From Octopus sinensis (lineage: Eukaryota), in contig NC_043000.1 in NCBI RefSeq assembly GCF_006345805.1, positions 33,666,001 through 33,730,000 of the forward strand: 64,000 bases of DNA, written 5' to 3'. Within the stretch, counting starts at the first letter, position 1; each line of letters opens with the position of its first letter. Position numbers and translations under genes: made by a program. A model generated the notes under the pieces. The model had not been told where the DNA came from. It did no database searches and saw only the letters and a program-made list of their open reading frames with translations. This document shows, piece after piece, positions 8,941 to 57,960 of this stretch.

Positions 8941-10330
8941 TCACCTCTCAATATATTTGATAAGGTGGTGAGATCACGGATAACCCTCTTTCTTGAAAGC
9001 AACTGATTGCTGAATCCCAACCAACATGGGTTCCGTAATGGAAGGAACTGCCTAACGCAGCTCCTGCATCACCTTGATGGCATTTTGAGAGCTTTTGGAG
9101 AGTGCTCGAATACTGAAGTCATCTACCTTGACTTCAGCAAGGCCTTTGACAGGGTGGATCATAAGATCCGCTTGAAAAAAACTATTCGACATTGGTGTCT
9201 CTGGAAAGTTACTACCATGGATCAAGTATTTCCTGACAGGCAGAACCCAACACATCGTAGTCGAAGGAGTAAAATCAAGCCCAGCCAAAGTCAGTAATGG
9301 TGTTCCACAAGGCACTGCTTTGGACCCACTTTTTTTCATCATCTACTTCAATGACATTACTGACATCATCAAGCACAGTAACATAAGAATCTTTGCAGTT
9401 GATTACAAGATCCAGAAGGTAATCAATGAAGTGGGTGACCGGACATACATTCAGTCAGATCTACTGGCTGTCATCCAATGGGCGGAAAATAACAATATAC
9501 TGCTGAAGGAGGACAAATTCGAATTAATCCACTTCGGAAAAGAGGATATCCTGAAACTCCCGTACACCCTTCCTTCAGGCGAAACCCTCATGGCATCCAA
9601 CAACATCAGAGACTTGGGAGTAATTGTGGACAACAAAATAAGCTAGGCTGCTCATATAAACAGCAAAGTTGACATGGCCCGCAGAGTATGTGTCCCTCGA
9701 TTCTCAGAAATTTCCAGTCGAGAGATATCCACTCCATTATCCTTCTCTTCTCTACTTTTGCTCGATCCCACCTTGAATACTGTTGTCCACTGTGGTCTCC
9801 CCACACGAAACAAAGTATCATGAATATTGAAGCACCTCAAAGGTCAATCACAAAAAAGATAGATGACATGACAGGCCTTGACTATTGGGGTCGACTAGAA
9901 AAGCTCAAGCTTTATTCCCTCCGACGCCGCCGTGAGTGGTACATCGGCGTTGCCCAAATGATGTTGGCATCACATTTACGATATAGCCAAGGCTTGGATC
10001 CCATGCTATCCGCCCACAACATAAATCATACTCACTTCACATAACAACAATACGGCACAATTATTTCGGCTCAATTGACCCGGCTCTCTTTAACATAACA
10101 CCAAAACACATTAAAGCAGAAACACCCCATAAAGTTCAAGAAGCCTTTGGACAAATTCTTTCAAAAATCTCGGATAAACCTCCTATGCCCAGATATGTCT
10201 CCATAAACAATAAATCTCTCCTGGAGTGGGCCGTGTTGTCCAATTCCTGATTTGAATGACTTTGCCAGGTGATGCAATTAAGCTAGACATGGCCTGGATC
10301 AATACTGCTCGAAACCTATTAAGGTGTCAA
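8941..10330 (+). mobile_element. 5'-truncated CR1-like LINE, RT pseudogene with 3' end
   Basis: NQHGFRNGRNCLTQLL, IYLDFSKAFDRVDH, GVPQG, FAVDYK (degenerate FADD), RDLGV, LEYCCPLWSP, LYSLRRRRE across frameshifted ORFs 9007-10044. Confidence 0.92.
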
Positions 10331-12800: not shown

Positions 12801-13545
12801 AGTAAGAAAACCAAGAGCAGTGGAGTTACTATCCCAGGAAGCCTGGGCCAAAATGAAATCTCTTGAAGAGGAAGCTAACGTGGACAGACCTGTGAAGATG
12901 AACACCTTCCGTATCGCAGCTCTCTGCATGATGACACCTCTGGGACTAACTCGGAATGACCCCAGCAACATCAAGTAAGAGCACGAAGCGAAACCAAGCC
13001 GTATCTCCTTGCTTCTGCCGCTGGTGTATAACATAACAACTATAACAAATCTGCACAAATGAAGGGAGAACACGCTATGTAGGCTTTGTGGAGAGAAAGG
13101 CATTTTGGTGCACAGCTTATCACAATATAAAATATCATTTAACTCCGGGAGATGTGGTGCTTTGTCAAGAAAGACACAAGAAATGCCAACTGTAGGAGAT
13201 GAGAACACAATTAATCAAGGTCGTGGGAGAGGGAGAAAAGTCATTGGCAACGACAAGAAAAACAATCCGTTTATTATAAGATGGCAAAACACGAAATATA
13301 AACGTAGACACGGAGGAAAGACTGCAGCTGATTTAATTCGTTCCGACAATTATGAGGCCGGATGTAGTTTTGTGACAAAGAAAGTGATTCTGATCGACCT
13401 TACAGTCTAGTGGGAAGAAGGGTGTGGCCAAGCACGACAAGTACAAGAACCTCGTTCAGGCTTACAGGGCAAAAGAGATGGTAGGCATGGCTATTCCCAA
13501 TCGAGGTTGGCCGTAGAGAATTCCCTGCCCAGTCGGTGGAAGAAA
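12790..13545 (+). mobile_element. HERO-like RLE non-LTR retrotransposon 3' fragment
   Basis: LCRLCGEKGILVHSLS zinc-knuckle remnant, KVILIDLTV*WEEG, and WLFPIEVGRREFPAQSV (cf. FPVEVGCRGF). Confidence 0.7.
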
Positions 13546-13559
13546 TTGGAGAGATGATG

Positions 13560-13573
13560 ATACTACTACTACA

Positions 13574-13628
<55 letters not shown>

Positions 13629-13629
13629 T
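13560..13629. repeat. (CTA)n microsatellite
   Basis: Read directly. Confidence 0.95.
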
Positions 13630-14025
13630 GCTGGATCATAGATATAGTAGCATACCCGGCTGACAACAAGGTATGCGATAAGGAAAAAAGAAAAATCGAT
13701 AGATATGACAAGTTAGCTTGGGAAGTAAAGCAGTTGTGGTCGATGAAAAAGGTGGTAGTAGTACCAATAATTGTCGGAGCCCTGGGAATAGCGAGCAAAC
13801 ATCTCGAGAAGTACGTGGAACAAATAGGGGCTGCAATAAAGGTGGAGCACTTGCAGAAAACAGCACTTCTTGGAACCTCTCGAATACTTCGGAAGGTGCT
13901 CGAAAAATAAGAGGTGTTACCTTAGTTCACTGGTAGTGAAAAGCTGACACCGTAGTACATGTCCATCGTTAGAAGCTCTTCAAAGGCAATGATAACAACA
14001 ACAACAACAATAATCATAATAATAA
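13630..14025 (+). mobile_element. R4/Dong-clade LINE 3' end (restriction-like endonuclease C-terminus plus UTR and AAC/AAT tail)
   Basis: CWIIDIVAYPADNKVCDKEKRKIDRYDKLAWEVKQLW...VVVVPIIVGALG...LQKTALLGTSRILRKVL; tail (AAC)n(AAT)n. Confidence 0.88.
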
Positions 14026-15773: not shown

Positions 15774-16455
15774 CATACATATATATATATATGTACATAC
15801 ATACATATACCCAGGCCTATTTTCCATTTTTTAGGAGGGGTAGCCACAGCAAGACATACACCAGGCATTCCATTCATTTCCCAGCTCAAAGAAGCGAGCC
15901 CCGTCCAATGCTCAGGTCAAGGCATAGAAAACAACCGCCAATATCAACAGCGGGACCCGACAGCATATGCTGGTTTACCCTCGCCGCGTCATGCTGGTTC
16001 CGTACCCATTTGAGCAACATCAGATTCACTCATCCGTGTCTGTGTGTGTGTGAATTTGTATATATACATGAATAGCTACAATACTAATAATAGTCCTCAA
16101 CTAAAGATCGCTGTAGCGTGAAACTCGAATCGTAAAAAAAGGAATTCAGTTTCAATAAACTATATAGATTATAATATTTTTGAGATTTTCCTCTCATATA
16201 TATATATTTGTATATATATAACATCTAATGTAGGATAAATTTTTTCGAAAAAATTCTATCAATGGCCAGCATATTAAAAAATACCTTTAAAGTTTAAATT
16301 TATAAACAATTTATAAGTAAAGGCAAAAGAAAAACTTTCTAATGCCAAAATATGCCGAAAATAGACATAACGTTAACAACCATGTAATTCATCACTACAA
16401 GCACGCGTCTCGAAGAAAGACGACAGAAATTTCTTTAAAAATCCCGTTATTACCA

Positions 16456-16509
16456 TATCGGACCCGATTTCAGAGTTAGTTCATAAGAACCTTCCCTTCA
16501 TCAGTGATA
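16456..16509 (-). ncRNA. minimal type I hammerhead ribozyme (inverted copy)
   Basis: TATCA-CTGATGA-stem II-GAAA-TCGGG-TC-CGATA on minus strand; one stem I mismatch. Confidence 0.6.
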
Positions 16510-16675
16510 AATGCGGCAAAGAAATAAATGAAATACTTACTTATACCCATGTAAGAAGCGAACACTAAGTCATGAGCACAATTAAGCACCCCAAATATAT
16601 CCAAAATAGAAACTATCTAGTGTCCGCTTCTTCCATGGGTATAAGTAAGTATTTCACTTATTTCTTTGCCTCATT

Positions 16676-16729
16676 TATCACTGATGAAGGGAAGGTTCTT
16701 GTGAACTAACTCTGAAATCGGGTCTGATA
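16676..16729 (+). ncRNA. minimal type I hammerhead ribozyme
   Basis: Stem I TATCA/TGATA, core CTGATGA (16681-16687), stem II with GTTC/GAAC hairpin, GAAA (16714-16717), GTC triplet with cleavage predicted after 16724. Confidence 0.72.
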
Positions 16730-17155
16730 TGGTAATAACGGGATTATTAAAGAAATTTCTGTCGGCTTTCTTCGAGACGCGTGCTTGTAGTGATAAATTA
16801 CATGGTTATTGACGTTATATCTATTTTCGGCACATTTTGGCATTAGAAAGATTTCTTTTGCCTTTACTTATAAATTGTTTATAAATTTAACTTTTAAAGT
16901 TATTTTTTAATATGCTGGCCATTGATAGAATTTTTTCGAAAGATTTTATCCTACATTAGATGTTAATTTTATAGTGTTCACTTCCGGACTCTCTCACTTT
17001 ACGAGAGTTTTTTTTAGTTTGAAACGCACGTGTCTTGAGATGGGCTATAGAGTTTTTATTTTGGATATATTTGGGGTACTTAATTGTGCTCATGACTTAG
17101 TGTTCGCTTCCTCCATGGGGATAAGTAAGTATTTCACTTATTTCTTTGCCGCAAT

Positions 17156-17209
17156 TATCACTGATGAAGGGAGGGTTCTTGTGAACTAACTCTGAAATCG
17201 GGTCCGATA
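17156..17209 (+). ncRNA. minimal type I hammerhead ribozyme (tandem copy)
   Basis: Same motif exactly 480 bp downstream; A.C mismatch next to the cleavage site. Confidence 0.62.
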
Positions 17210-17356
17210 TGGTAATAAAGGGATTTTTAAAGAAATTTCTGTCGGCTTTCTTCGAGACGCGTGCTTGTAGTGATAAATTACATGGTTATTGACGTTATGT
17301 CTATTTTCGGCATATTTTGGCATTAGAAATTTTTTCTTTTGCCCTTACTTATAAAT

Positions 17357-17358
17357 CA

Positions 17359-17453
<95 letters not shown>

Positions 17454-17592: not shown

Positions 17593-18006
17593 GTTACAAC
17601 TCTACATAGAACAGGATAGCCAGCAATCGATAAAATAAGTAACAGTTTGAAATATTGGTGACCAAATGCCTTTGCAGTTGGTGTCCATGTTTGTTCACCC
17701 TAAAAACACTGAAATTGGTGAAAGAACATATTGATATATCGATTGGTGGTCGATACGTTTCACTGACGAAACTCAAAAGGGCAAAAATACAATGGCACCA
17801 CCGCGGCAAGGGGATTTCTATCGGCCATTTATATACTTCTGTGGATTTTTAACAACATAACTGTCTCAGAGATGCTTTCTCAAGACGAATGCCGCAGTTT
17901 ATGAGCCTTACAATGATGAATGTCCTTTAATTATGGTATACAGATATCTGTATTGTACTATTACTGTTCCTGTCGTTCATAAAATGTATCTATATCTATC
18001 TATCTA

Positions 18007-18062
<56 letters not shown>

Positions 18063-18082
18063 AATCTATCTATCTATCTATC

Positions 18083-19251
18083 TTGGCACCGCGAGTGTCG
18101 CGTTGCTCTCAAGCAACTCTGCCGTCCCGGGTCGACCTTGAGTGACTTCAACACAACCAAAGCATTCTATAGGGGATTAGTGGAGGGGAGGTACGACGAC
18201 GAGCTCGGGGCGAACCTGGACGTCGACGAGGAGTACCTGACCCGCCTGTTCAGGACGACTTTCGGGCCAGGGCCCATGGACAACTTCCAGAGATCCCTGG
18301 CCTGGCAGTGCTACCGAGAAGCGCTACCCGTTCTGGATAAGCTCTACAGACACGGCTCGAGAAACACGGGGCCGACCTGCCCGAGATGCGGTCAGAGCGA
18401 CGAAACCATTCTGCACGCACTCGTGCAGTGTCCAACAATTTCCGACCTGTGGGCTTATGTCGAACAACTGCTGTCACGTGTGGGACGAGTCGGTTTATCA
18501 GCTGAGTCTATCGTCAATATTGTCACGCCTCCTTCCTTCAAACGGGAAGAGCTATTTTCATCATCCTTGTGGCTATGGCGAAAGAATGTATCTGGTGGAC
18601 GCGTCTGAAAGGATTGGAGACAAAAACTTTCCTCTCTGGTCAATCTCTCATCAACTTCTTCAAGTACCACTTGAAAAGGAAAGTGAGAGTAGAGAGGCAA
18701 GTTTTGTCTTGCGAATGTTTTAAAAAAGGATGGGTGAATGTAGCAAGGATGGCACGTATGAATGACGAAGCCACCTTGAGCATAATCCTATGAACCCAGA
18801 AATTGAAAACAGAGGGTTACCCACTTGCAAACAAATGTGTGGTAACATATAACAATATTGACCAAGGTTACCGTGGTCTTTTCGTAGGCTTTTCTTCCCA
18901 CGGATAAACCTTACTTGCTTTCCCCTTTACACCATATATCATAACACTGTGATACACGATCCCTATTGATCGTTCTTTTTTTTCCTCTTCCCCTTTTTTT
19001 CCCCTTTTTTCTTCTTTTTCATTTCTCTTCTTTTTGTTCCTATTCCTTTTCTTTTTTTTTTCTTTTATTCTTTTTATTTTATTCAATTTTTTTTGTTCTT
19101 TTCTTCCCTTTTACGATCCCTCTTGATCGAAAACCTACGCCACCCCCTTTTTTTTTTCTTTTGTTTTTTGTTCTCTTCATCCCCCAAAAGAAAAGCTCTA
19201 CCTTGTAACTTGTCCCATCTGTGTGCAGCCTGTGTGGCCAATAAAGAAACT
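18083..19251 (+). mobile_element. 5'-truncated Tx1/L1-clade LINE (zf-RVT C-terminus plus T-rich 3' UTR) embedded in (TATC)n
   Basis: SLAWQCYREALPVLDKL...CPRCGQSDETILHALVQCP...LW zf-RVT motif; one frameshift to AKECIWWTR. AATAAA near 19240. (TATC)n on both flanks. Confidence 0.85.
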
Positions 19252-34857: not shown

Positions 34858-34940
34858 ATTCCTGATGAAGGTGACATGTCAGTGTGAATCTAAATGATAC
34901 ATACCTGCTGACTAATGGCCTCTAGAAACGGCCGTTGAGT
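34858..34940 (+). ncRNA. type I hammerhead ribozyme with extended stem II
   Basis: ATTC-CTGATGA-(AGG..GTCAG...CTGAC..CCT)-GAAAC-GGCC-GTT-GAGT; palindromic stem III AACGGCCGTT. Confidence 0.65.
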
Positions 34941-43653: not shown

Positions 43654-44089
43654 TTATATATATATATATATACATATGTATATATAATACATATATACAT
43701 ACATATATACATATATGTATATATGTATTTATATATACATACATATATACACATATGTATATATGTATTTATATATATTATATATATATAGATATATATA
43801 TATATGTATATACATACATGTGTATACACACATAATTTGTTGGCAATGTATTGTGCTTGAGTTTCGATAGGTTATTGATTTAAGTGAAATTACTTTCCAT
43901 TGATTTGTAAAGGATAATCACATCAGTAATTCGATTTACATATCTGAGAACACATTCCTCACCACACTCACACACACACACACACATACATGTACATACA
44001 TACACACTCACACACGCACACATTTATGTAAATGCCTTCACCTACCCACCCACACACACACTCACACACACTCACACACACACACACAC

Positions 44090-44745
44090 ATATATATCTC
44101 TGTACATATAGGGGGCATCCATCAACCGAGAATCTCTCTCAACACAAAATACTTGGACGCGCGCACACACACACACACGCACGCACGCACACATATTGAC
44201 ATATTCGAATATGAAACGTAAAGCCTGTTTGATACAAATATAAGTGAGATAAATTTGTTATCATGTTTTGGTTTGCGGATTGTTAAAGAAATATAAAACG
44301 GAAAGAAACAATCGGTAAGTAGGTTTATAGAGGAGTTGAATGCAGCTATCTACTGACGTCAATGGCCAATATATACACACATACATGAATACATATACTA
44401 CGAACATATACACACACATATATATCTCTGTACATATAGGGGGCATCCATCAACCGAGAATCTCTCTCACACACAAATACTTGGACGCACACACACACGC
44501 ACGCACACATATTGACATATTCGAATATGAAACGTAAAGCCTGTTTGATACAAATATAATGAGATAAATTTGTTAAGTCATGTTTGGTTTGCGGAATTGT
44601 TAAAGAGAAATAATAAAACGGAAAGAAACATCGGTAAGTAGGTTTATAGAGGAGTTGAAATGCAGCTATCTACTGACGTCAATGGCCAATATATACACAC
44701 ATACATGAATACATATACTACGAACATATACACACACATATATAT
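44090..44745. repeat. ~330-bp tandem duplication
   Basis: TATATATCTCTGTACATATAGGGGGCATCCATCAACCGAG at 44091 and 44421. Confidence 0.9.
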
Positions 44746-53779: not shown

Positions 53780-54974
53780 TTTATCAACGATAATTACACT
53801 TTTTGGAAAACATATTTAATTAGTTCTGAAAATTACGTCCCTTCAAATACCATTTTCTTCCCTATAATAGCAGGTTCTTTCCAAAGAAGGTTCTATCACC
53901 ATTTGCGATATCTCTTGGCTTATCCTTTCAATTTCGTCGCGGATGATGGTCTTAAATTACTGGATTATCCGGGGTTTGTTAGTGTATACTCTGGCTTTCA
54001 GATTCCCCCACAAGCAAAACTCTGGAGCCGTTAAATCGAGTGAATGTGAGGGAGAGTAAAATTTAAAGTTTATCGAAATTATCTTGCGTCCAAAGATTTG
54101 CCTTAAGAACTTCATCATCGGGCGAGCTGTATCCAATGCTACCCCGTACCTTTTCAACTGCAGGACTCACTTAATGTTCCAACATATTCCGATGCCGCTC
54201 TCCTATGACAGTTAGTGCGTTTTTGCCTCATCCTCAAAGAAATAAGTATCTAGGACTCTTTCCGTATATAACTAGCACTAAACTAGAGTGCCACTCATGG
54301 TGATGGACTAGTTTTGGATATTTTGTCCCCCACCTCCACCAAAATCGGATAATTTGTTTGTTGACAAAACCGTTTAGATGTAAGTCAAACTTGTCAACCA
54401 TAATGGGGGTTGTAAAATCACATTCTTGCCCTGCTAGTTCTTGGATCTGAGCAACAAGCACTAACCCCATCTGATGATCTTTTTGTTCCGGTTCCTGCAC
54501 AAGTTGCTCTTAGTACAATATTAAAACCAGCCTCCTTTGAATCCTCTGTGGTGAGCTTCGTGATGTTCCTAGCTGCTGGGTCGCTTTCGGGTTGATATTG
54601 AAGGCTCTTCTTCAATGTTCCGACCTCTACGCTGAATGCTGTCCTGAGATCTCCCCGAACGTTGCCTTCCCGTACGTGGTAAATCAGTCACAGCCTCCTA
54701 TTGTTCAAACCACTGGAATAAGTTGAGTATCACTTGTTTAGACGCTGGTTGTCTGACCCCAAAAGGGTGAATGTAAGGTTATTTGGTTAGTACAATTGAT
54801 CGCTGATTTTGTAGATAAAATTCAATTATTTTTATTAGTTTCTCAGTTGTGCATTTTACCATGATTGTTTTCCAAGAATTACATGTCAATAATCTGAAAC
54901 ATAATAATTAAAAAAATAAATAGTGAAAACATTATTATATTTTTAAATGGTCTAGTGACTATTGGGCCAACATG

Positions 54975-54977
<3 letters not shown>
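53780..54977 (-). mobile_element. DD41D (rosa/Visitor-type) Tc1/mariner transposase pseudogene
   Basis: LHLNGFVNKQIIRFW and SLDLTAPEFCLWGNLKARVYTNKP; 41 residues between the degenerate second and third catalytic positions; TIR-like end next to TA at about 54977. Confidence 0.78.
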
Positions 54978-55009
<32 letters not shown>

Positions 55010-55025
55010 TACATATATATATATG

Positions 55026-55106
<81 letters not shown>

Positions 55107-55242
55107 ATATATTATATTAAATTAGAGATAAAACCACTATTAGGCAAATCATACAATGAAAAACTTAAGCCAATACATAAGATTAATTAATTAATATTAT
55201 TTTCAATATATATAAAAATTATTAAAAAAAGATAACTAGTAT

Positions 55243-55309
55243 AACACTACGATCGTTTCATGGCTGTCCAATTCTTAAAATTTCGAGTTACAGTCATTCT
55301 TCAGGTGAT
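55243..55309 (-). ncRNA. type I hammerhead ribozyme
   Basis: Minus strand: CAC-CTGAAGA-ATGaCTGT...ACAGcCAT-GAAAC-GATC-GTA-GTG; palindromic stem III. Confidence 0.68.
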
Positions 55310-55471
55310 TTAAATATCTAAAATAAAATCAGAAATATTTAAACAATATTTTAAAGATATAAATAATATATATAATATAATAATTTTACTTAAATAAACT
55401 CTATTATCAAACTAGAGACATAGAACTTAACAATTATATACATACATATATACTACACACATACATACATA

Positions 55472-55609: not shown

Positions 55610-57960
55610 AACTCTTTAAATTGTTTCAGCATCATAGCTGCGGTCATGCTGGGGCACCACTGTTGACTGTGCTACACCATTATTTGAAACCTCCTCTGAT
55701 ATGTGGCACCTGGTGAATGAGGGAGTTTGGTGCCGCTGCCGCATCTGTGTTTCCTACCGTGAGGTAGACTCATCCAGAACCCCTAACAGGAGGAGATCCA
55801 GTTTTGTTTCGAAGACACCTACATCCACACCATGCAGTTCTCAGACAAGTTTGGTACAAGGCCTTCCAGGGTTCTCCAGATGTATTTCACTGCATATCTC
55901 TTCCGCCTTCATTTTAGGGAGAAGAGTTTTAATTCTTTCAGTGTTTCCCAGTAACTGATATGTTGCATTGAGACGATTTTCTTTGTATAGCTTCGTTGGA
56001 TTGCTTTGAGTTCCGCCGTTAATTCTATATTGTGTGGTGACCATAGCTAGACGCAGCAGTCCGAGCGGCTGAGGACGTATGCTCTCCAAAGGACCATCAT
56101 TGTTTCCTTTCTCTTGTTTTGAAAGTTCAGAGGATCCATCCTGCTAGCCGACTGTATTTTATTATCAACTTGATAATATGCACTTTGAAAGATGCATCAT
56201 TGCTCATGCCAATGCCCAGGTCACGCACTGATTTTTGCCCAGCGATTGCAATTCCTCCCGGGGCAGTGTATCCTGTCAGCATGTCGTTCAGCTTTGTTTG
56301 CTGGTTGCGCAGGGCTTGGAATTTTCCTACATTAATCTACCCACTTGCATACTGCGTCCAACTCCCGTTGCAGACGCACAATATTTCATGGATTTTGTAC
56401 TATCTGAGGGACTTTTGTGTCATTTGCATAGCTAGCAAGGGTGGCTGAGCAGCTGAGTGCATGTCTGAGAGAGCCACTATGACTAGAAGTGGCCCTAAGA
56501 AGTGCCCTGTGGATAACCACTCGCTATTTGTGTTTCCTGGGAGGGGGCTCCATTGGCCACCACTGCCTGATATCTATCTTTTAGAATGTCGTGCAGCCAC
56601 TCTCCAAGTTTTCTATCTGGTCGAAATCCATGCTGAGTGTCAGTCAACAAGTCATTTTCTTCAAGGAACTGACCAGTTTCTGGCGGCCTATTCGTTCCAT
56701 GACTTTGCTGATGTGTGAGGTCAGAGAGATAGGCCTATAATTTTAGCATCTGGTCTGCTTCCTCCCTTATAGATAGGGCATATCATCCCTTCCTTCAGTT
56801 TGTCTATGAGCTCACCACTTGCAAGAGCGCTCTGAAAAAGAAGCTGCAGTGGTTTTGCAAGGGCTCGTTTACACGATTTGAGAAGGAACACTGGGAATCC
56901 ATCAGGGCCAGCAGCTGAGTTTGTGTCAACCTCATCTATGGCCAGTGTTACATTTTCTTCTTCAATGTTGATGCAATCAATTTTCGCTTCTTTGGTTACA
57001 GGTAAAGTGGCAAAGAATTCTGCTAGTTTGTTTACTTGCCTGTGTCCCAGAGGTGTTGTGAACACACTTTGGAACTGTTCATTCAATATTTCACTTATCC
57101 TCATTGGGTTTCATCTTTTTGGAAGAGAGGTTCTATTTTGTGGCGTACTGAGGCTGTTTCTTTGGCAAACTTAAAGAAAGCTTTACGGTTCGACTTGATA
57201 TTTTCTATAACCCAAACTTCCTTATCTGCTCTCTCCTTTTCGTGAGATTTATGTAGATCTTCCTCAATCTTCAATAGCGCTTCTCCAGACGAGGTTTCTC
57301 ACCACTTTTGGGGTGCTTGCTCAGACGGTTCGCAAACTTTGCCCGTCGTCGAATAAGGATCTTCCTTTCTTTAGGGATTCTGTTTTTGTGTATGTTGGCC
57401 CTGCGCTCTGGAACGGATTTGTCACATGTGACTTGCATTATGGACATGAAATGTCTGTGCTTCATGTCAATGCCTGGTATGGAGGGACATTTAGGCCAAT
57501 CCGATTTGAGGATCTCTTTCTCAATCAACTTCCAGTTTTCTTTATGAAAATTTAGTTTGGAGAGATTTTGGATGCTTCGTATAGGCTGTCTGTCTGCAGA
57601 GGCTTTTGGCCCATACATAAACATCTCTAGTATGTTGTGATCTGAGACCAAATTTGTGTTTGTAGCCAGGTCATCTGCTGGACAATCTTTTGTGCCACGT
57701 GCAAAACAAAACAGACTGTTCTTCTGCTGCTGCCCTTTTCGCATCAGAGTGAGCCAGCCGTTTGTAGGGCCACACACAACATCTGCATTTCGTCTTTCGG
57801 GAGTAGACAGTGCACCATTTTTTCGTCTTTGATGCATTTCCTTGTGTCCTCCTCGTAGAAGGGAGTATTGTCTTGGGCCCATGCAGTTTTGGCAGAGGTG
57901 CAAAGCGACAGTTTACACCATCATCCCCATGCTAGCAGTTCCCTTGAAGGTAAAATTAGC
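55610..57960 (-). mobile_element. CR1-like LINE with internal deletions (EN-linker-RT-3' UTR)
   Basis: SDHN, SAAGPDGFP..LLK, PIYKGG, NYRPISLT, QHGF, PQG..LGPLL, SYANDTK, IWRTLEGLVPN; tail GGTGCCCCAGCATGACCGCAGC...GCTGAAAC. Confidence 0.9.

Follow-up and report, generated by a model that had tools for sequence, protein, structure and literature searches.

A dispersed hammerhead-bearing repeat family in Octopus sinensis, a likely non-LTR retrozyme with paired arms that mostly end at two different fixed sites

What kind of element carries direct and inverted copies of one short repeat, each with a hammerhead-like core, and how could such a layout arise? The question is raised by a locus at 16221–17356 of a 64,000-nucleotide stretch of Octopus sinensis DNA, here called the window. 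Self-comparison of the window revealed three repeat copies that were 93–94% alike, with a direct pair at a spacing of 480 (16618–16859 and 17098–17339), inverted pairs (16309–16620 with 17045–17356, and 16326–16567 with 16618–16859) and CTGATGA cores at 16681 and 17161 on the plus strand and 16504 on the minus strand. A sequence-only reading of the locus had described three similar copies, one inverted and two exactly 480 bp apart; the copies, their orientation and the spacing were borne out, but they are not three full units. With unit position q1 placed at window position 16618 and a period of 480, the element has the following parts:

16195–16220: left flank, TA-rich
about 16221, minus strand: outer end of the inverted arm, a distal ('long', tail-bearing) 3′ end abutting a TA run
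16221–16620, minus strand: inverted arm, 5′-truncated, q428–480 then q1–346, about 400–409 nt
16617–16620: head-to-head junction, with 3 nt (16618–16620) common to both arms
16618–17356, plus strand: direct arm of 739 nt, one 480-nt unit plus 258 nt (1.5 units), q1–480 then q1–258
17356, plus strand: outer end of the direct arm, a proximal ('short') 3′ end abutting a (TATC)n run
17357–17453: right flank, (TATC)n

The outer ends of the element are both 3′ ends and both touch microsatellites. The unit is non-coding, as had been proposed: the longest stop-free frame in the direct arm was 86 codons, five Penelope-like element (PLE) peptides of the same genome gave no tblastn match in the 64-kb window, and neither the ORF listing nor tblastn revealed a reverse transcriptase (RT) plus GIY-YIG reading frame inside the element. 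The G+C content of the predicted window monomer was low, at 33.5%. We consider it highly probable that the locus is an aged insertion of a non-coding, multi-copy family whose unit of about 480 nt carries a conserved type I hammerhead, and that this family is likely a non-LTR retrozyme which a PLE RT/GIY-YIG protein copies in trans through a two-site priming mechanism. The element has drifted by about 3% per arm and is probably inert. Elsewhere in the window, frames at 17931–18723, 9176–10044, 56721–57912 and 13485–13910 resemble broken fragments of LINE reverse transcriptase. A 320-bp unit at 44082–44745 is present in 2.1 tandem copies that are 93% alike and has no CTGANGA core.

The genome searched (2.72 Gb, microsatellite-rich) contains a dispersed multi-copy family, and the copy search proposed in the earlier reading thus gave a clear answer. 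The hammerhead core pattern had 1,682 genome matches and its reversed control 32, while a looser pattern of core plus stem III had 1,960 and a 16-nt tail motif 3,119, with none for either control. A one-unit query returned 3,684 first-look candidates, and the 40 that were scored included at least 105 matches on many contigs. Four subfamilies were distinguished by stem II and a fifth was seen among the looser-pattern matches; the window unit was 76% alike to a subfamily-B unit, and at least five subfamilies keep the non-coding period (450–504 nt). The hammerhead recurs in consecutive head-to-tail units, both in the window (16681 and 17161) and in 12 natural monomers bounded by two hammerheads. 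No description of this family was found in openly available papers on octopus or cephalopod hammerheads or Penelope elements, a search that covered neither subscription papers and supplements nor Repbase and Dfam. At two loci (L187 and L201) adjacent tandem units were identical over 182 and 178 nt and the remainder of each locus was older, which we read as recent local duplication, conversion or an effect of assembly.

Where the hammerhead would cut was examined using the variation in the family. The window motifs were assigned as follows:

16450–16510, minus strand: type I hammerhead in the inverted arm, with the cut predicted 3′ of A16456 (AUA)
16675–16735, plus strand: type I hammerhead of the first direct copy, predicted cut after A16729; stem I UUAUCA/UGGUAA, CUGAUGA at 16681–16687, GAAA at 16714–16717, stem III AUCG/UGAU
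17155–17215, plus strand: type I hammerhead in the second direct copy, with the cut predicted after A17209

In this AUA register the core CUGANGA...GAAA, three helices and an NUH cut site are all present in the window hammerheads; stem III (AUCG/CGAU) has 4 bp, and stem I (UUAUCA/UGGUAA) has no A·C mismatch. The sequence-only reading had placed the cuts after 16724 and 17204, in a GUC register whose stem III has two pairs and which contains an A·C mismatch. The two registers were compared in the first 100 core-pattern matches on chromosome 1, of which 95 were recovered in 81 loci; seven were set aside (six unrelated, one near-duplicate) and two could not be anchored, leaving 86 of 88 copies. 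U16.1 was kept in 84 of the 86 copies and pair 2.1–1.1 formed in 83 in the AUA register, against 67 and 22 in the GUC register, which therefore fits the family worse. The most telling copies belonged to subfamily D, where the A–U pair beside the AUA cut had become G–C in 12 of 20 copies, a stem III C–G pair had become U–A in 13 of 20, and the U required by the GUC register was replaced by A in 19 of 20. Among 30 distinct rows from subfamilies A and D, the AUA structure had 97.2% of cells paired and 30 cells changed on both sides, compared with 89.8% and 14 for the GUC structure. None of 500 shuffles equalled the AUA covariation, although the compensatory changes (4 of 19 pairs altered on both sides) reflect few subfamily-level events and are not independent. 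Without prompting, RNAalifold found the AUA-register stem I in the 12 natural monomers, and the GUC register was 4.8–7.6 kcal/mol less stable.

Constancy of the core is uninformative in copies picked by a pattern that presets it, but in 42 BLAST-chosen copies variation was almost confined to N7, a position at which all four bases were found among the 86 chromosome-1 copies. Core conservation and stem covariation, two family features named in the earlier reading, were both found. The variation in the 86 copies supports predicted cleavage after AUA (16729, 17209 and, on the minus strand, 16456), 5 nt downstream of the sites first proposed, and with a cut after AUA rather than GUC both earlier caveats, the A·C mismatch and the very short stem III, disappear. 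An AUA cut site is known in a natural viroid hammerhead (PMC1636495). A hammerhead model scan, which had been suggested as a check, was not supportive, as no hammerhead family among the Rfam models matched the window at gathering or E-value thresholds; the miRNA-like Rfam matches in the window were discarded because they correspond to the inverted junction. Internal loops are present in both stem I and stem II. In the lowest-energy fold the core CUGAU is paired with AUCGG, and this fold is more stable than the catalytic one by 3.6–6.8 kcal/mol; cleavage may therefore be inefficient or require assistance. For comparison, eight of nine frog retrozyme dimers did not cleave in vitro (bioRxiv 10.64898/2026.07.22.740005).

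Were the plus arm transcribed and its ribozymes active, a monomer would be released between the two predicted cuts:

16730–17209, plus strand: predicted 480-nt monomer

The released length of 480 nt expected by the sequence-only reading agrees with this prediction, and only its boundaries are shifted. Folded as a circle, the window monomer was predicted to be 65% paired (z −4.5 against 40 shuffles, and −3.0 against 15 in a second run). The 12 natural stretches between two hammerheads, 450–504 nt long, all folded better than the average of their 15 shuffles (z from −1.6 to −9.4). Outside the hammerhead, covariation in the 12 monomers was sparse (RNAalifold). Strongly folded monomers have been described for retrozyme circles (Cervera & de la Pena 2020, PMC7229834).

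Two further motifs near or within the element had also been read as degenerate hammerhead cores:

16991–17055, plus strand: the proposed second core, not a hammerhead
16101–16131, plus strand: decayed hammerhead with CTAAAGA for CTGANGA, outside the insertion and belonging to an unrelated low-copy family

The first (16991–17040) was rejected, as GAAAC was present only in the window copy among 24 aligned copies and the family reads CTYTRYG..GAAT-like. A hammerhead at this position was also dismissed as the origin of 5′ ends near unit position 410–430, the core being unconserved. In the predicted fold, 17026–17055 forms the 3′ strand of a long-range helix with about 16754–16785. The second is a real motif, though decayed and from another small family; it matched seven other places in the genome, three of them with an intact CTGANGA. 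Other hammerhead-like motifs were seen in passing. One with a long stem II (window 54970–55320, minus strand, core at 55304) lies in a repeat that is 80–88% alike to inverted repeats beside a GIY-YIG locus (L105/L069) and is likely the pseudo-LTR (pLTR) of a different PLE family. Another (34862–34935, plus strand) reads CTGATGA...GAAACGGCCGTT, with about 55 nt separating the core halves, and is possibly the hammerhead of a third family. The core search pattern also detected a further hammerhead family, CCG CTGATGA...GAAATCGCG..CCGG, at L226 and L227 (G000:C1:68008470 and 84878570).

Two intact hammerheads 480 nt apart beside a long inverted repeat could suggest that the locus is a host-selected generator of circular RNA and double-stranded RNA, and family pieces were indeed found in contigs of four sequencing runs guessed to be RNA. 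The unit was not found in any run on record as RNA. The four guessed runs contributed 80, 123, 189 and 99 family contigs, of which only 3, 8, 10 and 3, respectively, were at least 99% alike to the locus, and in such contigs a circle junction is indistinguishable from a genomic tandem and uninformative either way. Two contigs ending at 16724 were considered as cleavage ends and set aside, as a T/C variant at 16725 explains them and contigs cannot show ends. The same layout occurs at dozens of unrelated sites, and the three copies are about 5–6% apart, as in other insertions. Host selection of the locus is accordingly very improbable. The sequence-only reading had seen the inverted arm as a supply of antisense or double-stranded RNA; the better interpretation is that it is a by-product of PLE integration, one that recurs in insertions across the family.

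The insertions have a regular structure. Their 5′ ends are scattered, and their arms stop at two fixed 3′ sites about 85–105 nt apart, the short one close to q260 and the long one close to q346. In the chromosome-1 sample, a microsatellite run followed 51 of 55 short ends and 45 of 47 long ends. Two features of the window unit mark this region:

16868–16884, plus strand: AU-rich hairpin marking the proximal (short) end site, the point at which short arms terminate
16877–16963, plus strand: the 'tail', an interval of about 85 nt separating the two end sites and containing a hairpin at 16924–16950

The tail hairpin is symmetrically lengthened in subfamily B (in L122:1200–1345, minus strand, both of its strands are extended and it measures about 22 bp, z −4.5), which suggests selection on a hairpin between the end sites. 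The inverted arms and TA flanks raised the possibility of a DNA transposon of the MITE or foldback type that has terminal inverted repeats and targets TA, but the unequal ends at different fixed sites, the random inner ends and the many one-armed copies are foreign to such an element, tandem units occur and the RNA structure covaries, and we give this origin almost no credence.

The two end sites are used in a complementary way. Among 54 clean head-to-head pairs, which come from 135 loci that also include 65 single-ended and 16 complex ones outside the count, 50 joined a long-ended to a short-ended arm, three were short+short, one was intermediate and none was long+long. Long+short pairs made up 20 of 22 in 74 chromosome-1 loci, 8 of 9 in 16 further subfamily-B loci and 22 of 23 in 45 BLAST-chosen loci, a set biased to long ends; the hammerhead-pattern sets alone gave 28 of 31 (p about 2e-6 against even chance, binomial, by hand). 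One apparent long+long pair (C2:131042674–131042971) is in the match table, outside the 54 counted. Twelve of the 69 free 5′ flanks contained a tiny inverted stub (short in 11 cases and long in one, with one stub in the control), and some single-ended loci are therefore two-armed. The window element, with its long-ended minus arm and short-ended plus arm, is typical of the family. The one-sided tail is already in print as a qualitative rule, and what is added here is the count; our literature search on twin priming with Penelope, tails and inverted repeats, which left paywalled papers and supplements aside, found no such count or model.

By its tested features, the family classifies as a non-LTR retrozyme, or non-autonomous PLE, and the retrozyme-type element proposed at the outset, a tandem non-coding unit with a conserved type I hammerhead, was right in kind. 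Candidate partners exist in the genome, where intact-looking RT plus GIY-YIG frames of 775–780 aa contain a cysteine linker and are Neptune-like by the description in PMC8557442; TA runs terminate some of them. Apparently intact PLE frames were seen at L091:2245–4569 (minus), L092:1753–4092 (plus) and, as 781-aa open frames, at six more places, indicating that at least one Neptune-like family is young. The expected linkage of the unit to such frames was upheld only in part, as the frames are there but no DNA homology to the unit was found near PLE ORFs in 50 loci around GIY-YIG matches (150 of 5,029 candidates scored). In one locus (L109) a PLE fragment and a separate unit copy lie about 2 kb apart, and PLE fragments near L045, L181, L199, L220 and L231 were set apart from the arms. 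The 69 free 5′ flanks, drawn from 152 loci, shared no upstream sequence hinting at an ORF, and profile search, flank tblastn, flank cross-comparison and the stem-III and tail patterns found no autonomous partner. The units might instead be truncated pLTR ends of an autonomous PLE elsewhere and not an independently amplified non-autonomous family. Stumps of the 5′-truncated pLTR type are the commonest PLE product (PMC8557442, PMC8969392), and the partial ORF search (150 of 5,029 GIY-YIG candidates) leaves room for this reading. However, what follows the tail in the longer arms is again the same non-coding unit, repeating every 450–504 nt, this period is kept in at least five subfamilies, and no PLE ORF was contiguous with an arm in the loci searched, which makes the truncated-end explanation improbable.

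How do the two arms of an insertion arise? They are nearly always of the same subfamily, and in 39 longer pairs the opposite arms were each other's best match in 16 and in the top 5% in 22, with four complex pairs low, so on sequence likeness both arms would come from one source. That similarity would also suit fold-back or self-priming, in which one strand folds on itself and is copied, making the second arm a copy of the first, as proposed for the head-to-head repeats of rotifer Penelope elements (PMC3846280). A copy cannot exceed its template, however. In the 50 long+short pairs the short-ended arm extended further upstream in 20 (by a full period in one of these), the long-ended arm in 27 and neither in three, and when the pairs were read by hand, 19 of the 50 fitted fold-back from neither arm unless the template jumps. 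The 5′ ends of the two arms lay within 10 nt of each other in only three of 50 pairs, and in the window pair the short-ended arm is further upstream (698 against 271 nt). Fold-back is thus unlikely. The arm lengths instead favour two priming events, one per target strand. The junctions showed overlaps of 1–7 nt in 19 of 49, were blunt in three and had filler in 27, as expected if two cDNA ends were joined.

The form of the template is less sharply defined by the arms. In 12 loci with both, tandem units differed by 5.9% and opposite arms by 6.3%; this equal divergence is compatible with one sequence read repeatedly, for example a circle, and equally with a uniform uncut multimer. A fixed linear dimer, which would give position-specific differences between tandem units, was discounted, as 26 tandem pairs had no consistent polarity, though the test is a weak one. 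The predicted cut site was run through by 76 of 100 arms, a figure raised by hammerhead-based selection, and two sites by eight. Arm 5′ ends did not pile up there (4 of 100 lay no more than about 10 nt away), and the genome therefore carries no direct trace of cutting. Together the run-through and the lack of a pile-up imply templates that are uncut or re-ligated.

These observations can be accommodated in a scheme in which a tandem copy would be transcribed and its hammerheads would cut the transcript to a monomer that is ligated to a circle (or the transcript would be left as an uncut multimer). A PLE protein would nick both strands of an AT-rich target, and cDNA synthesis on RNA of the same source would start from one nick at the distal site and from the other at the proximal site. 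Both cDNAs would stop at variable places and then join head to head with a 0–7 nt overlap or short filler, and the tandem part would be produced by reverse transcription continuing past the unit boundary. In its strictest form, PLE integration would be obligately asymmetric double priming by a dimeric RT-endonuclease on one circular retrozyme RNA, each start site being used once per strand and both arms and tandem units being copies of the same circle. We offer this form tentatively, and it may well be wrong.

LINE-1 twin priming also gives head-to-head arms with their 3′ ends outward from two primings on opposite target strands. There the arms divide one RNA between them without overlapping and the position of the second site varies, whereas the octopus arms copy overlapping sequence and both sites are fixed.

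The closest relatives by class are the metazoan non-LTR retrozymes, which, as far as described in PMC7229834 and bioRxiv 10.64898/2026.07.22.740005, are like the octopus family non-coding, of low G+C, head-to-tail and a few hundred nucleotides long, with a single type I hammerhead in each unit, a copy number in the thousands, co-resident PLEs and a self-paired monomer (here predicted). A link between PLEs and retrozymes is argued in the latter report (Li, Clavereau & Pollet 2026). The octopus unit is longer (450–504 nt, against 170–400 nt for the described circles of invertebrate retrozymes), and the octopus circle is a predicted one. Its copies are mostly dispersed insertions of 1–2.5 units with inverted arms and tails, where the retrozymes in these accounts form long arrays, and it differs from them in its predicted AUA cut site, its 4-bp stem III and the lack of a homologous autonomous pLTR in our searches.

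The insertions themselves look like those of PLEs, whose signature is a partial tandem, an adjacent inverted copy and a tail often at one end only (PMC8557442, PMC3846280, PMC8969392). Insertions of EN-bearing PLEs (Craig et al. 2021, PMC8557442; Arkhipova et al. 2013, PMC3846280) share with the octopus family 5′ truncation, a partial tandem, an inverted 5′-truncated copy, a tail at one end, microsatellite or AT-rich targets and a hammerhead in the repeat. As described there, they differ in having an RT/GIY-YIG ORF and a tail of 30–40 nt, against about 85–105 nt in the octopus family; in the latter the one-tail rule has been counted (50/54), and the arm lengths argue against the self-priming model of PMC3846280. 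The green anole Poseidon PLE has been studied in vitro, with two internal RT starts bounding a tail and both strands cut (Frangieh et al. 2024, PMC11167929). Its two start sites, like the octopus end sites, lie downstream of the hammerhead with a start in a stem-loop, its targets are AT-rich, both strands are cut and extended, and uncut RNA is usable as template. Its hammerhead overlaps the start of an ORF, which the octopus unit lacks, and it showed no strand difference in start-site use (PMC11167929), whereas the octopus insertions use the two sites complementarily.

The element class being already known, the window locus itself is ordinary. What the family adds is, first, that natural compensatory changes fix a predicted AUA cut site that Rfam misses, and second, that a short unit with thousands of copies allows whole insertions to be counted, from which a near-strict rule of one long and one short end emerges. 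The origin of the inverted repeats and one-sided tails of PLEs is posed as an open question in PMC8557442 and PMC11167929, and the long/short rule is a sharp prediction for the existing in vitro PLE system. If true, asymmetric double priming would account in one step for two features of PLEs, their inverted repeat and their one-sided tail, and would link the hammerhead to circularisation of the template.
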